From Amoebophrya sp. A120 (taxonomy: Eukaryota; Protista; Dinoflagellata): a stretch of DNA of 7,546 bases. Below the pieces are notes generated by a model. That model had not been told where the DNA came from. It searched no databases and saw only the letters and a list, made by a program, of their open reading frames with translations. A program made the translations under genes and the position numbers. The stretch covers positions 347,768-355,313 of the forward strand of contig CAJINV010000025.1 in assembly GCA_905178155.1 (NCBI GenBank), written 5' to 3'. Positions 1,731 to 7,546 of this stretch are shown here, piece by piece; within the stretch, counting starts at the first letter, position 1, and the number at the start of each line of letters is the position of its first letter.

Positions 1731-2106
1731 CCTTCGGTTTTTTCGATCCCGGATGTGAGTTTTTCGGTCCTACCCAAAAATGCAAAAGAGCATTGCACTT
1801 TTGCAAAAATGCAATGTTTGAATTCTGAAAATGCAATGTTTCGGTAATGCTTTTTTTGAAAAAATAATAGCTGGTTTATGAGTGAGGTTTGGGTATTTTG
1901 TCCCTTCATACTGCCGCTCTGAAATAACAATAAGTACGTTGCTTTATTCATCAAAATACTTTTTCAGGTTACTACACTCGTGCTACGTTTTTGGTGAATT
2001 TTTGCTCCATATTAGCCTTAAAAGCGCTATACTCACGGAGTTTTTGAATCGCATTACCGATCGGAGATCATCAGCTATACTTGTACCACCATCGATCGCT
2101 CTACTT

Positions 2107-2130
2107 TCCGTATAGCAGTTTTGGCCCAAG
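2107..2130 (+). other. Degenerate (relict) dinoflagellate spliced-leader-like sequence
   Basis: TCCGTATAGCAGTTTTGGCCCAAG vs DinoSL DCCGTAGCCATTTTGGCTCAAG: 19/22 identities with a 2-nt insertion. Sense strand, 110 nt before the ATG, not followed by a GT donor. Confidence 0.6.
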
Positions 2131-2240
2131 AAGTTTTTAGTGTGTTGACCACTAACCGAGTGTATGATTAAGTAAATAGATTACGCAAGAACATCCTACT
2201 TCCAGGAAATCGTGCCTGAGAGGACATCAACACTTTTCCA

Positions 2241-5200
2241 ATGGTTACGTCTCGTCGTGTATCAACTGCAAATATGTCTGGGTCTGGAAGATTCTGAGAT
2301 TTGTAATGTACGTTTAGCATGGGGGATAATGTCTGTAATGCATGCCGTAGCATCACAGACTTTTCGAGGGCTTCGCGCTGCCTATTCCGCATGACATCAA
2401 ATGCCCTAGATCTCCTGCGTCCGAAGCTGCTTGTGGCGACGGTGCAAAGGTTTTTGATGAGGTGCAGTCGGGTATGCATGACAATTGCGCTCTCCGCGTA
2501 GCCAAGGGTTGCATTCCCTTTGCATTTGCTGGTCATGCAATACAATTTTTTTTGGAATCCAAATGGAGCAGGACAAGTTCGGATTCTTCCAGACCCAGAC
2601 GAGACATTTTTGCATTTGATATCGTGGATTGCCCTGCTGGGCGATTGCCGTGCTGGTCGCGGTACTAGGGGGAGCTGTCCTTATCGCTGTTGTTGTTACG
2701 ACTGTGGTCATTGTCCTACAACGGGCAGGGCAGGCAAACGAAAACGAGGAACTACAAGTGTCATGGCCATGGGGGCAGAGGACAAGGCATAATGAAATCC
2801 CGACTGGCCGGAGGAATCATAATGAAGTCCCGACTGGCCCCCCAGCTGGACTTCGATTGTCATGGCCATGGGGGCAGAGGAGTCATAATGAAATCCCGAC
2901 TGGCCCCCCACCTGCACCACCGCCGCGGCCAGCGCCTGGCCCCCAACCTGCACCACCGCCGCGGCCAGCGCCTGGCCCCCAACCACCTGCACCACCGCCG
3001 CGGCCAATAGTACCCCCGTTATCTGCAGACTCACAGCTCGTGATCCAGCATGCGGGGCTGAACGCGTTGTGCCAGTCGCCGGACGTGTTGGAGTGCAGGC
3101 AGTGGACGAGGACGCAACAAGGAGGCACGGCTACGGCTAGTCAAGAACATCAAGGCACAGCATCAACTGCTACGACAACGAACGCCCCAAGTTCCTCCGA
3201 CTCGACTTTCTATGTGTCCGTCGACATGAAGAAGAATGTTGGCGCTTCTGCAAATAACGGCGCGGACGATGAAGATGGCTTCACCATTGAACTCGATCTT
3301 CCTGCTGGCGTGTTTTACGATGGACGTTATCCGGGTATACCCGCGTACCAGTCGGGCAAGTACATCGTGAGAAGCCGAAGATTGCGGCCCTCCTATGTCC
3401 GGCGCGACCCGGATCTGGCACAGTTCTCTCCCATTCGTTCCCAGCGCATGGGCTGGGCGGACGCAGAGCTTACGCTTCCCGGCGCGAGGACTAGTACGAC
3501 GACCGGTTCTACTGCTGGTACTACTGGTGGAGCCATCGATAATAATGCGCCACCAGCAACGACAGCGCCACGACCAATAAATACGATCCCAATTTTCCTG
3601 AAATTTGACGAGCTCGACTTTCGCAACGATGACCGCGCCAAGGGTTTTCTGCACAACGCTGAAAAAATCTCGGATGTTTGCCACAGGGTAGCGCTGGGTC
3701 TTTCCCCGTTTCCAGCATTCCCAAGCCTAGAAAAGGAGTTTGGAAATTATAGTAGTAGCGCCACGACTTCTTCACAATGGCAGCCACATGCTGCAGGCGA
3801 ACGCTTGAGGCGATTTTTCCGGATGCGGCCCGTTCCTGCTCCGACCGTCATCTCCGTAATCGGTGAGCCCGGCAAAGAGACCGGCTGTGGCTTTTTGACG
3901 ATGTTGGAAAAGGCTGATAGTGACAACGAGTCCTCGCCGTCGCCGGCGTCACCAACTACAACGCCAGCCGCACCTGCTGGACGAGCAAGCAGCCCCGTTC
4001 TGGCTCGGCGGTCGATGCCCTTGAGCGACGTGCTGCGGCGAGTCAAGAGGGCCCGAGAAAGTAGTGCAGGCGGCGCCGCAACTACATTTCTGCAGCGGCG
4101 GGGGGCAGCAGCAGCAGCACCAGCAGCGGCTCGACCACCAGCGAACACAACTACTATGACACAAGCCTCGACTGCGGCAGATTTTGACGACGCCCTGCAG
4201 GCTCTCTTTACGGACACGTCGACTACCGACTTTGTGCAGCAACTGTACACGGAGCTGGTGCGAAACTTGCGGACAATGGACCGGTCGTATCCTGAGTAAA
4301 AACATCCCCACACCAGAGTCAAGACGGGGATTTTGCAACACAAACCTAGAACTTTTGGGGGTCACGCATCACAAGTTGCAGTCCGTAGTGTAGTGCGGGT
4401 TCGTGAGGCCAGCTGCATCAGAAATCCATCTGCTCATCCTGTTTACAGCATTACATACAAATTCCACAACACGATTGGAAATGGCTCCCATGCGGATGCG
4501 CATTACAGGTCTTCCTGTCTTTGCAAATCTGCATTACAACTCTGGTGTGGGTACGTTTTTACACAGGATAGGTCGGGTTTTTTATACATCGACGTGCACG
4601 GCTTGAATATCAAATGTAAAAATGTCTGGGTCTGGAAGAATGCAACTTGTCATGCTGTTTTTCGACTCTAAAAAAAATTGTATTGCATGACCAGCAAAAT
4701 GGGTACAGTTTTTGCTACACAGACAGGCCATTTCTCATGCGGAAGGTGCATGAGGAAGCCCTCTAAAAGTCTGCGATGCTAGTTCAAGCATTACAGGCAT
4801 CATGGGTCATGAGAAATATACATGACAAATCTTGCATTCTTCCAGACCCAGACATTTTTACTTTTGATATTGAACACCTTGGTGCACTTTGAGCTTGTAG
4901 AAGTAGCAGACTCCTCGCAGGAGCCCCCGGGGGCTCCACCTGTCGCGGCTCCCGTTGTACAACTGCGGTATGAACTGTCCCTGGTAGATTACAAAACCCT
5001 GTTGTACATGCGGTCTGCGCAGAAAAATTTTGGTGGGCGGGATGACAGCACGATTGGAGTCCTCAATAACACGAGCGGACGAGACACCAGGCTGCTGCAC
5101 GAAGAACTTCTTTTCGAGGTGGCGAGGACAGCGCCAACGCATTCCACAGTAACCTCCAACCCGGCTGCACCTGATTTGCAGCCGCGGCCACAGACCTTAC

Positions 5201-5673
5201 GAACCCTTTTCGCTTTGAGGAATTTACCAACCCAATGGGGTGGCACAGGTGGCCACATCAAGGACCTGTTTTTTGCCCTGCGCCTCAGTCGCCGCGATCC
5301 GAATAATGCAGGCCGATCCTGTCAAGCCTATGGTGACGAGCTGTATCCCTGGAACCAATACGACCCGGACGCGGTCCCAACGGGCCCGATGGCGGACGAG
5401 CCGGTTACGTACGACCTGACTAGTGGTATCTTGGAGGACAAAGCTTTCGGTTCCGCAATTATGGGCGAAGCGTTCAAGGACCTCATCACCTTTGAACAGA
5501 AAGAAGAGATCGAGATAGCCGTGCTAGAGGAAGACATTGCCGCCGGCGTCTACCAGAACATTCCAGCCGACGCGTATTACGCGGCCCCGGCGGGAGGACA
5601 GCTGCCTAGGGAGGAGATGGACCGGAACCGCATACGAGAGCGGAATAGCTGCCTAAGGGAGCGAAGAGACTGA
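2241..5673 (+). CDS. Predicted 4-exon gene, join(2241-2259,2627-4296,4567-4607,4875-5673): 842-aa hypothetical protein with an N-terminal signal/anchor helix and a Pro-rich stalk
   Basis: ATG 2241 is the first ATG after the in-frame TGA at 2217. Deleting each TIR element plus one direct repeat gives continuous junctions: MVTSRR|GLPCWAIAVLVAVLGGAVLIAVVVTTVVIVLQR, ...MDRSYPE|DRSGFLYIDVHGLN|TLVHFELVEV..., ending at TGA 5671-5673. Total 2529 nt = 843 codons. No family recognised. Exact splice positions slide within the direct repeats. Confidence 0.75.
2260..2621. mobile_element. Element A: 362-bp MITE-like TIR element, putative introner (intron 1)
   Basis: Left end TATCAACTGCAAATATGTCTGGGTCTGGAAGA; right end reverse-complemented TATCAAATGCAAAAATGTCT(CGTCT)GGGTCTGGAAGA. 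Perfect 5-bp direct repeat TCGTG at 2255-2259 and 2622-2626. Confidence 0.9.
2627..4296 (+). CDS. Exon 2 (the 556-aa ORF of the track): hydrophobic helix, peptide repeats, Pro/Thr/Ala-rich linkers between non-repetitive segments
   Basis: Long GC-rich open frame that has only a TTG start on its own. It begins right after element A, and its apparent stop TAA (4297-4299) is the first 3 nt of element B's TIR. Confidence 0.85.
2759..3006 (+). repeat. Coding repeats: SWPWGQR x2, HNE(I/V)PTG x3 and a 36-bp PAPPPRPAPGPQ unit x~2.6
   Basis: TGTCATGGCCATGGGGGCAGAGG at 2759 and 2858; CATAATGAARTCCCGACTGGCC at 2788, 2818 and 2884; CCTGCACCACCGCCGCGGCCAGCGCCTGGCCCCCAA at 2911, 2947 and partially at 2986. 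Confidence 0.9.
4297..4561. mobile_element. Element B: 265-bp TIR element, putative introner (intron 2), a different TIR family
   Basis: TAAAAACATCCCCACACCAGAGT (4297-4319) matches the reverse complement of 4539-4561 (TAAAAACGTACCCACACCAGAGT) at 21/23. Flanks CTGAG/CACAG are a degenerate 5-bp repeat (3/5). Confidence 0.8.
4567..4607 (+). CDS. Exon 3, a 41-nt mini-exon (DRSGFLYIDVHGLN) between elements B and C
   Basis: It is the only sequence between the two TIR elements and is open in the same frame as exons 2 and 4. Confidence 0.65.
4608..4869. mobile_element. Element C: 262-bp MITE-like element, putative introner (intron 3); same family as A, opposite orientation
   Basis: The TIR TATCAAATGTAAAAATGTCTGGGTCTGGAAGAATGCAA matches the right end at 37/38. 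Perfect direct repeat TTGAA at 4603-4607 and 4870-4874. Internal 4670-4698 is the exact reverse complement of 2525-2553. Confidence 0.92.
4875..5673 (+). CDS. Exon 4 (C-terminal part; the track's 283-aa ORF without its element-derived N-terminus)
   Basis: Open frame to TGA 5673. The ATG at 4822 lies inside the right end of element C, so it is unlikely to be a real start. Confidence 0.8.
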
Positions 5674-6826
5674 GTAGCGAATGTGACCCACACGACCCAT
5701 TGCGCGAATGTTGCCCGAACGATAGAACACAGACGAGGTCCGCTTCAAAGAAGTTCGACTTTCATTTGTTGAGATTGTACCCACAAGAGACTGCTCATAT
5801 GAGACGACTCAGTGCGGAGACACATCAAGCACTCGTTGTATATTATGGTCCTCCGGACAAGGAGTTGATGATAAGTAAGTACTTATCAGAGTGCACTACA
5901 ACTCGCGTTGTGCTTGTGCAGTTCCAGACATGAAAAACTGTTCACCCACTAGACTACAACTTCCAGGCAAAGAAAAATCTCGACCAGCATACTACGAAAA
6001 ATGTGTTGCAGTTACTACACATGCGTTGCAAATTTGGCAACCCAAGCTTGTCCGGCAAGACAGAGAAAGAAAACTGGCAAGAGCCGCGCGGGGATCAACA
6101 TAAGGGATTAAAACCCACTAATAAAGTATACGAGGATCGTCTTATTTAGCTCTACCTGATCCTGATGCAATCGTGGCGCTCGACATTACAGACCACGACC
6201 TTCTCGCGATGAAAATGAAAGAGTCAGCAAAATCGAAAAGGAAGGATCCCGACCTGTAGTAGTTGCACACCTGAAACAATGAATTTGAATCTTCATGTGC
6301 TTCTCCATAATAGTACTCGTCTCAGGCACGAGCACGACGGGAACGGTCCTGCGCAAAATTTTTGGCGAAAGAAAATCATACTTATCGAGGTGCAGTAGTC
6401 AACTTCTCGCACCGCCAAGCCTAGCGCGGACCTTGATCCGAGTCAGAAGTAGAGAATGGAGGTGATCAGCGAACGAGTAAAAAAAGATCAGAATGGACCG
6501 CCTGGTGGCATCGTGGTTCCAGCGAGAATGCTGGTGCTAGCAGTCTACGGACGATCATCGCATAACGATCATCGCATAGCGAAAAATTCTTCCTGCTACA
6601 CACAAGAGCTTTTTGATGCTCAACATCTTCCTGCCGCTCTGAAATATAAACAATAAGTACGTTGCTTTCATCAAAATACTTTTTCAGGTTACTACACTCG
6701 TGCTACGTTTTTGGTGAATTTTTGCTCCATATTAGCCTTAAAAGCGCTATACTCACGGAGTTTTTGAATCGCATTACCGATCGGAGATCATCAGCTATAC
6801 TTGTACCACCATCGATCGCTCTACTT

Positions 6827-6850
6827 TCCGTATAGCAGTTTTGGCCCAAG
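6827..6850 (+). other. Relict spliced-leader-like sequence, copy 2
   Basis: Identical to 2107-2130. Confidence 0.6.
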
Positions 6851-6906
6851 AAGTTTTTAGTGTGTTGACCACTAACCGAGTGTATGATTAAGTAAATAGA
6901 TGACGC

Positions 6907-7213
6907 TATGGATGTGTCAGAGTTGAAATCGACAAAGTTGAAATAATTTGTCATGCATAAAATGGATGCCAGTTGGAGCCCAGTTTTCAAGTGGCGCATG
7001 ACAAATTTCGGTGGTCCCTAAATCCAGTTTGTCATGCTATTTAGGCAAAGAAGAGCGATTTTCTCATGCTACTTTAGCAGCTCGAGCTGTAACCCCAAAC
7101 AGGCTTACAATCGGCCTCACTTGCCTGCTCTGCAACGCACGTACCTCGGGTCATGCATTTTATGCATTACAGATTATTTCAACTTTGACGATTTCAAACC
7201 TGACGCTTCCATA
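6907..7213. mobile_element. Element D: 307-bp MITE-like element with 62-bp TIRs upstream of gene copy 2, absent from copy 1
   Basis: 6907-6968 matches the reverse complement of 7152-7213 at 54/62 (TATGGA...). Flanks are GACGC (6902-6906) and TACGC (7214-7218). The paralogous empty site has a single TACGC at 2182-2186. Confidence 0.92.
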
Positions 7214-7272
7214 TACGCAAGAACATCCTACTTCCAGGAAATCGCGCCTGAGAGGACATCAACACTTTTCCA

Positions 7273-7291
7273 ATGGTTACGTCTCGTCGTG
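7273..7291 (+). CDS. Exon 1 (MVTSRR) of a probable tandem paralog; the rest lies outside the window
   Basis: Identical to 2241-2259, in the same context and followed by the same element. Confidence 0.6.
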
Positions 7292-7546
7292 TATCAACTG
7301 CAAATATGTCTGGGTCTGGAAGATTCTGAGATTTGTAATGCACGTTTAGCATGGGCCATAATGTCTGTAATGCATGCCGTAGCATCACAGACTTTTCGAG
7401 GGCTTCGCGCTGCCTATTCCGCATGACATCAAATGCCCTAGATCTCCTGCGTCCGAAGCTGCTTGTGGCGACGGTGCAAAGGTTTTTGATGAGGTGCAGT
7501 CGGGTATGCATGACAATTGCGCTCTCCGCGTAGCCAAGGGTTGCAT
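7292..7546. mobile_element. Element A' (paralogous copy of A at the same site in gene copy 2), truncated by the window end
   Basis: Matches 2260-2514 with 3 substitutions and is preceded by the same TCGTG (7287-7291). Confidence 0.9.

Follow-up and report, generated by a model that had tools for sequence, protein, structure and literature searches.

We analysed a 7,546-nt stretch of the genome of the dinoflagellate Amoebophrya sp. A120 (contig CAJINV010000025.1, positions 347,768 to 355,313 of the forward strand; hereafter the window), which comprises one whole copy of a tandemly arranged gene, followed by the beginning of a second copy. Four inserts with terminal inverted repeats (TIRs), E1 to E4, interrupt these copies. 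They are very probably introners of Amoebophrya A120, likely non-autonomous DNA transposons that are likely spliced out of RNA together with one copy of the short repeat flanking them. The class to which the inserts of this gene belong, the introner elements of Amoebophrya A120, is already published (PMC7789003). E1 is retained in DNA, and all four elements are lost, each with 5 nt, in RNA-like contigs from a single sample whose RNA status is guessed. The inserts and the coding exons they separate are as follows.

2260-2621: E1, TIR element of 362 nt, repeat TCGTG, 367 nt removed
4288-4570: E2, TIR element of 283 nt, repeat GGTCG (4283-4287 and 4571-4575), 288 nt removed
4608-4869: E3, TIR element of 262 nt, repeat TTGAA, 267 nt removed
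6907-7213: E4, TIR element of another family, 307 nt, in the 5' untranslated region of copy 2 only; 312 nt skipped, left G kept
2241-2259, plus strand: coding exon 1, holding the ATG; its final 5 nt are the left repeat TCGTG
2627-4287, plus strand: coding exon 2, with a hydrophobic anchor, proline-rich repeats and the predicted kinase N-lobe residues Lys332 (3601-3603) and Glu352 (3661-3663)
4576-4607, plus strand: exon 3, 32 nt, with the predicted catalytic loop and Asp566; the codon of Asn571 is split by E3
4875-5673, plus strand: coding exon 4, with the predicted metal-binding Asp609 (4987-4989) and the stop

To locate the inserts, the window was searched for inverted ends bordered by short repeats. 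All four start with TAT and end with ATA, and the flanking repeats are exact over 5 of 5 nt in E1, E2 and E3. Once element and one repeat are removed in each case (367, 288 and 267 nt), the ATG at 2241 and the stop at 5671-5673 close one open frame of 836 codons. A preliminary description of this DNA had proposed three TIR elements with 5-bp repeats, removals of 367, 270 and 267 nt, and a single frame of 842 amino acids from ATG to stop. The single frame holds, as do E1 and E3 with their removals, but the second element had been misplaced: it lies at 4288-4570 with the repeat GGTCG, and its RNA-like joint gives 288 nt. The 270-nt junction is not among the six joints listed; it keeps the frame and adds 6 residues, while the product has 836. 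The tandem array and E4 had been missed.

The flanks of E4 are unequal, GACGC (6902-6906) against TACGC (7214-7218), and agree at 4 of 5 positions. E4 sits 55-60 nt 5' of the ATG of copy 2, and copy 1 is without it. With target duplications of constant length and an insertion polymorphism, the elements in these respects resemble miniature inverted-repeat transposable elements. Their end-to-end stems stand well apart from shuffled sequences (z of -4.8 for E1, -6.6 for E2, -13.5 for E3 and -9.4 for E4), none of which folded as well. E1 and E3 belong to one family and lie in opposite orientations. The end motif of TAT, 7 nt and AAA is present in E1, E2 and E3; E4 starts with TAT and is without the As. 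The right inverted end of E1 carries a 5-nt near-duplication (2596-2605) that is not in E3 and could be an excision footprint.

For E1 and E3 none of the six registers permitted by the repeats gives GT-AG, GC-AG or AT-AC, and E4 likewise has no such register. E2 can be read as GT..AG with the cut at +1, as 4284-4571, so that the preliminary description was right in denying GT-AG in any register for E1 and E3 and wrong for the second element. None of the joints seen corresponds to the more distant GT-AG pairs, 2257-2668 and 4594-4893, that it had named as refuting its reading.

Contigs or reads of seven of the 15 listed sequencing runs were placed on the window (X1, X3, X4, X5, X6, X12 and X13). 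X3, X5 and X6 derive from one sample, taken as RNA by guess, with zero depth at 6043-6714. The joints 4282 to 4571 (E2), 4602 to 4870 (E3) and 6902 to 7215 (E4) each occur in all three. The E1 joint is found in X6; it is equivalent to 2254 to 2622, with a short side of 66 nt, and was recorded as 7286 to 2622, the compared stretch having begun inside E1. Four of the six listed joints thus span E1 to E4, and the other two lie inside E4. In each run a single RNA-like record of 336 nt holds the joints of E2 and E3 together, and over 4115-4282 it differs from the window at 0-1 positions. RNA-like contigs start at 1972 in X4 and at 2025 in X3. The contigs of both runs break at E1, where their unplaced ends appear to give a 30-nt overlap in sum, and in both the bases at 2182 (G) and 2213 (C) are those of the E4-bearing copy. 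X4 holds an E1-retaining contig at depth 3 beside skipping contigs at 9-11. The DNA-like run X1 has even depth across gene and spacer; where one of its contigs crosses the right end of E1 the depth is 110.4, against 109.8 upstream. An independent metagenome assembly likewise keeps the elements.

Repetition of these elements is genome-wide: 12,887 X1 contigs matched, with depth heaped on the element ends. A scan of one metagenome assembly with a 22-nt end motif matched at least 151 stretches, from which 150 loci (L001-L150, 365 kb) were kept, and 286 distinct elements, four of them from the window, were defined by their inverted ends alone. Exact 5-nt repeats flank 213 of these, 39 agree at four of five positions and 34 at fewer; exact repeats of 4 nt were found in 4 elements and of 6 nt in none. 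With the ends set blind to the repeats, these counts show that the flanking repeats are not due to chance. The TAT-N7-AAA motif, of which TAT was required by the search, is present in 324 of 376 element ends of the related loci. The end of E3 had no match in viral contigs.

Coding strands were called by a self-trained codon model, in which adjacent calls agree 82 to 1; 141 elements have a confident call of their own (188 including locus-level calls, the rest dropped). Of 248 testable elements, 138 are flanked on either side by a coding-like frame once element plus 5 nt is removed, against 21-24 in the other two frame classes. This test fixes the frame only, as +2 and +8 score alike; the +5 form also served to train the codon model. 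In-frame retention of the elements was rejected, their lengths showing no bias towards multiples of three (99, 66, 87). No splice motif was found in any register of the 141 strand-called elements. GT-AG is possible in some register in 12 of them, compared with 6 on the antisense control, so that GT-AG compatibility like that of E2 occurs at a rate seen by chance. Both orientations to the gene are about equally frequent in the five largest families (30:37, 12:12, 14:9, 12:7 and 8:8). There is no detectable target preference, the repeat bases equalling the phase-matched background with one of 25 positions at p 0.012. Repeats with one mismatch occur in 25 of the 141 elements in in-frame genes and affect all five positions (7, 8, 3, 5 and 2 cases), a distribution that does not fix the position of the cut without RNA.

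The first repeat base falls on codon position 3, 2 and 1 in 69, 41 and 31 cases (p 0.0003), a codon-phase bias that stands without detectable target sequence preference. Introns usually show an excess of phase 0, and the bias corresponds to this excess only if the cut lies at +1 or +4. Of the 172 stretches that separate one element from the next, 25 measure 45 nt or less after removal (overlapping loci not merged), which indicates that micro-exons like exon 3 are common. The long elements L074 2491-3462 (972 nt) and L047 2595-3225 (631 nt) have exact 5-nt repeats and no long frame; it is possible that they are deletion derivatives of an autonomous element. No nested element was found in the four long elements checked.

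Several observations weigh against reading the four inserts as RNA-spliced introners. All junction evidence consists of contigs of the one sample with guessed RNA status, with no raw junction reads, and these contigs bear copy-2 alleles and other differences, so that their source may be other than copy 1. The listing of joints for the comparison that includes X1 shows 15 of 188 joints. X12, an RNA run on record, yields one contig in exon 4 (5109-5315) with no junction, and in X13 the raw reads missed the gene and gave no junction; its 142 reads, almost every one matching an element end with 90-95% identity, come from another locus or strain. E2 could be removed as an ordinary GT-AG intron. The sense-strand stems have no excess of G-U pairs (74 G-U against 97 A-C, p 0.09); they thus give no sign of selection on an RNA hairpin, and proteins may instead bind the ends. 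Neither a transposase nor an autonomous copy was found in the 365 kb of loci, where the longest element measures 972 nt. The paralogs also differ in their inserts, as seen in E4 and hinted in X1 at two further sites, and this opens the unlikely case of a DNA copy empty of E2, E3 or E4.

The last point leads to an explanation at the DNA level, which we regard as improbable: the joined forms might be tandem or dispersed copies that never had the elements, or lost them precisely in DNA, and the copies in the window might be silent. Copy 1 is indeed without E4, and paralogs carry insertions at other sites. One X1 contig terminates exactly at 4287, which would suit an E2-less DNA copy; contigs drop minor variants, and X1 shows no copy-2 alleles. 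Yet X1 crosses the right end of E1 unbroken at flank depth, the 336-nt record of each run carries the joints of both E2 and E3 with almost no differences from the window in the adjoining exon, in the window the G and C alleles found on the E4-less contigs go together with E4, the frame of copy 1 is intact, and the intron class has been validated by RNA-seq (PMC7789003). Far less probable still is programmed DNA elimination in one life stage, as known from the internal eliminated sequences of ciliates. The TA-bounded ends and the exact restoration of the frame would suit it, and life stages are inseparable in these data. Against it, the DNA-like run holds E1 at flank depth and the independent metagenome assembly contains the elements, the runs that skip elements are without spacer, and X4 has both E1-retaining and skipping contigs. 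Of the two routes left open by the preliminary description, wholesale elimination from DNA is not supported, X1 keeping E1, and removal of Amoebophrya-type transposon introns from RNA is supported by the RNA-like joints and the published class (PMC7789003).

Under RNA-level removal the elements would insert by a staggered 5-nt cut, with a transposase acting in trans. They then stay in the DNA, as seen for E1 and for the class, and element plus 5 nt is lost in RNA-like contigs in all four cases. Recognition would rely on the symmetric TAT...ATA ends rather than on a directional donor, branch site, acceptor or repeat sequence; the equal orientations, the motif-free repeats and the one-mismatch repeats in intact frames point to this, and the paired ends or stem would fix how far away the cuts fall. 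With respect to catalysis we lean modestly towards a modified spliceosome without a recognisable U1, as the data in PMC7789003 would suggest, and favour it over an endonuclease plus ligase of non-spliceosomal origin. The latter would recognise the terminal stem and release full-length circles or linear RNA instead of a lariat; it is a candidate of lower but appreciable probability, a grading that concerns the catalytic step and not the explanation as a whole. The independence from orientation and the lack of a donor, acceptor or repeat motif speak for such enzymes, as does the report that U1 was undetected in A25 or A120 (PMC7789003), and they are suspected for the nonconventional introns of euglenids, which leave circles (PMC11282704). 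On the other side, 83 of 89 spliceosomal proteins and most small nuclear RNAs are reported as present, and the layout of inverted and direct repeats is common to 15% of canonical A120 introns (PMC7789003).

If the E4-less contigs stem from the E4-bearing copy, the unequal flanks of E4 and the retained left G would place the cut at +1 or later and exclude one of the six positions. We tentatively propose, as a possibility that we hold doubtful, a motif-free ruler in which the symmetric TAT...ATA stem determines a pair of cuts with a 5-nt stagger, at +1 or +4 in the repeat, whatever the orientation of the element and the sequence of the repeat, and in which the machine is not a U1-dependent spliceosome. 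Such a ruler, if true, would be the RNA counterpart of transposon excision and would render any insertion of these families harmless. Since no register has a splice motif, the predominant dinucleotide pairs of A120 introns (Table S4 of PMC7789003) appear to reflect aligner placement.

Three side observations concern element copies elsewhere. In X13 about 130 raw RNA reads share one E3-like end (window 4607-4656) and a common foreign flank; they come from an abundant transcript in which the element is retained, at another locus or in another strain. In X1, at 2696-2730, a diverged paralog at depth 48, which agrees with 2700-2730 at 21 of 31 letters, apparently has an end of the E1/E3 family just after this stretch, where the window copy is without an element. 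Also in X1, at about 2897-2908, a right end of the E2 family adjoins the region of proline-rich repeats, with a depth of 77, which suggests another paralog-specific insertion.

The remaining features of the window concern the array, the gene start and the membrane anchor.

1947-2240, plus strand: 5' untranslated region of copy 1; its near-identical counterpart in copy 2 is 6667-6901 together with 7214-7272
2108-2130, plus strand: relict spliced-leader-like stretch, recurring in copy 2 at a distance of 4720 nt
2641-2718, plus strand: transmembrane segment predicted from hydropathy, residues ~12-37
6667-7546, plus strand: start of the next tandem copy, with ATG at 7273 and a copy of E1 from 7292; truncated by the window end

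Copy 2 differs from copy 1 by 4 substitutions over 333 nt. The stretch 1947-2514 is ~99% alike to copy 2, either because the region around the gene start was recently homogenised or through an effect of assembly. The spacers of the two tandem copies (275-1545 and 5760-6404) match in patches with large gaps.

With exon 2 as query, two Amoebophrya sp. A120 proteins were matched, at 96% and 62%. A public model, P0003 (GSA120T00023846001), is identical to the final 320 of 320 residues of the 836-residue product, and the removals of 288 and 267 nt are hence already contained in it; the gene numbers of P0001 and P0003 are four apart. Neither exon 1 nor the hydrophobic anchor occurs in any of the four matching proteins. 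The gene had been called hidden, which is true of exon 1, E1 and the membrane anchor, the only parts missing from the gene models found, and not of E2 and E3, which the public A120 model removes exactly. The public model is lengthened by 516 residues.

The score of the leader-like stretch at 2108-2130, obtained with the spliced-leader sequence as printed in PMC5585692, was matched by one of 2000 resampled sequences and by two of 1354 real tiles. The relict suggests that the gene was retroposed and once intronless, with all introns being later insertions. Leader-like matches in L077 (1-500) and L025 (1501-2000) slightly outscore it. A T-rich stretch ending in AG lies at 1961-1967 and again at 6681-6687, the former 5 nt ahead of position 1972, where the RNA-like contig reaching furthest upstream begins, and is possibly a trans-splice acceptor.

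We are fairly confident in predicting that the 836-residue product is a type II membrane-anchored atypical kinase. Residues 12-37 form its sole hydrophobic segment, where hydropathy peaks at 3.05; elsewhere no window of 19 residues exceeds 1.6. Lys332, Glu352, Asp566-x4-Asn571 and Asp609, located by eye, occur in this order, which we take to be that of the kinase catalytic motifs, and are kept in P0001 and P0002. With the predicted catalytic loop in exon 3 and E3 interrupting the codon for Asn, an active enzyme would require that the element be removed exactly. Neighbours in the ESM Atlas are kinase-like by features (best score 0.96, 164 of 256 shared, unnamed cluster) and, from the same single source, by structure. 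Other results weigh against the kinase prediction: the TM scores by query of the structure neighbours are only 0.28-0.38, Pfam returned 0 families for both exons, P0001 and P0002, a sequence search of the PDB gave two chance antibody matches only, and AlphaFold2 models of the product were unusable (pLDDT 35.8 and 37.5). The product resembles atypical protein-kinase-like enzymes (Kdo/WaaP, RIO1 and the APH clan) in its Atlas neighbours and in the Lys-Glu-Asp-x4-Asn-Asp order, but differs from them in the lack of a profile match, the long low-complexity inserts and the N-terminal membrane anchor. Word-indexed and exhaustive protein searches found no relatives beyond the A120 family, so that the predicted membrane-anchored kinase-like family is one found only in Amoebophrya A120. 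A literature search, with subscription papers largely outside it, returned no report of secreted kinases in Amoebophrya.

The class is already published; on how A120 introns are spliced and where the cut falls, literature searches of the same scope returned no report resolving the mechanism. The equal orientations and motif-free repeats are an argument against an ordinary donor and acceptor. The unequal flanks in about one of seven elements (39 of 286) mean that RNA reads can fix the cut position, and the tandem array provides natural copies with and without an element.

Among known systems, a U2 spliceosomal intron requires a GT or GC donor and an AG acceptor, which E2 has and E1, E3 and E4 lack, and E1 departs from a ciliate-type eliminated sequence in being kept at flank depth in X1. 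The nonconventional introns of euglenids (PMC11282704, PMC12501133) are similar in their paired ends, junction repeats and lack of GT-AG, and also in a position set by the spacer from the paired motif and in an unknown machinery. They differ by a code of the CAG/CTG type and a purine at the exon start, neither of which was found in A120 ends or flanks, whereas the inverted ends of A120 are far longer. The introner-like elements of Polarella glacialis (10.1101/2020.10.14.339549) share TIRs and target site duplications, the formation of introns in either orientation by some of them, and a phase bias. There, however, G[TCA] and AG are recruited from the repeat or carried by the element, to which the phase bias is ascribed, in contrast to A120 with no detectable motif.

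The closest systems come from the same strain. Gozashti et al. 2025 (PMC12130899, supplement file 8) distinguish 58 A120 introner families, with about half of the splice sites non-canonical. Among 22 of the 58 rows, most are given as 'TIR DNA, unknown', and lengths near 150, 210, 260, 280 and 305 nt resemble those of the families described here, while the automated repeat lengths range from 2 to 5 or are missing. Farhat et al. 2021 (PMC7789003) report more than 60% non-canonical introns and 29,850 introners in Amoebophrya A120, with a TAT-N7-AAA motif, an unknown border position and no U1 detected. Our elements agree with these in the TAT start, AAA at 11-13, inverted ends, direct repeats of 3-5 nt, the lack of a transposase, a length of ~240 nt and the unresolved border, and we see no difference in kind from what that paper describes. 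A word search of its main text, figures being outside its scope, gave no statement on orientation or phase. What is added here to that account is a strict 5-nt repeat once the ends are set at TAT...ATA, equal orientations, the absence of a target preference, a codon-phase bias, presence and absence from copy to copy, and one junction with unequal flanks.

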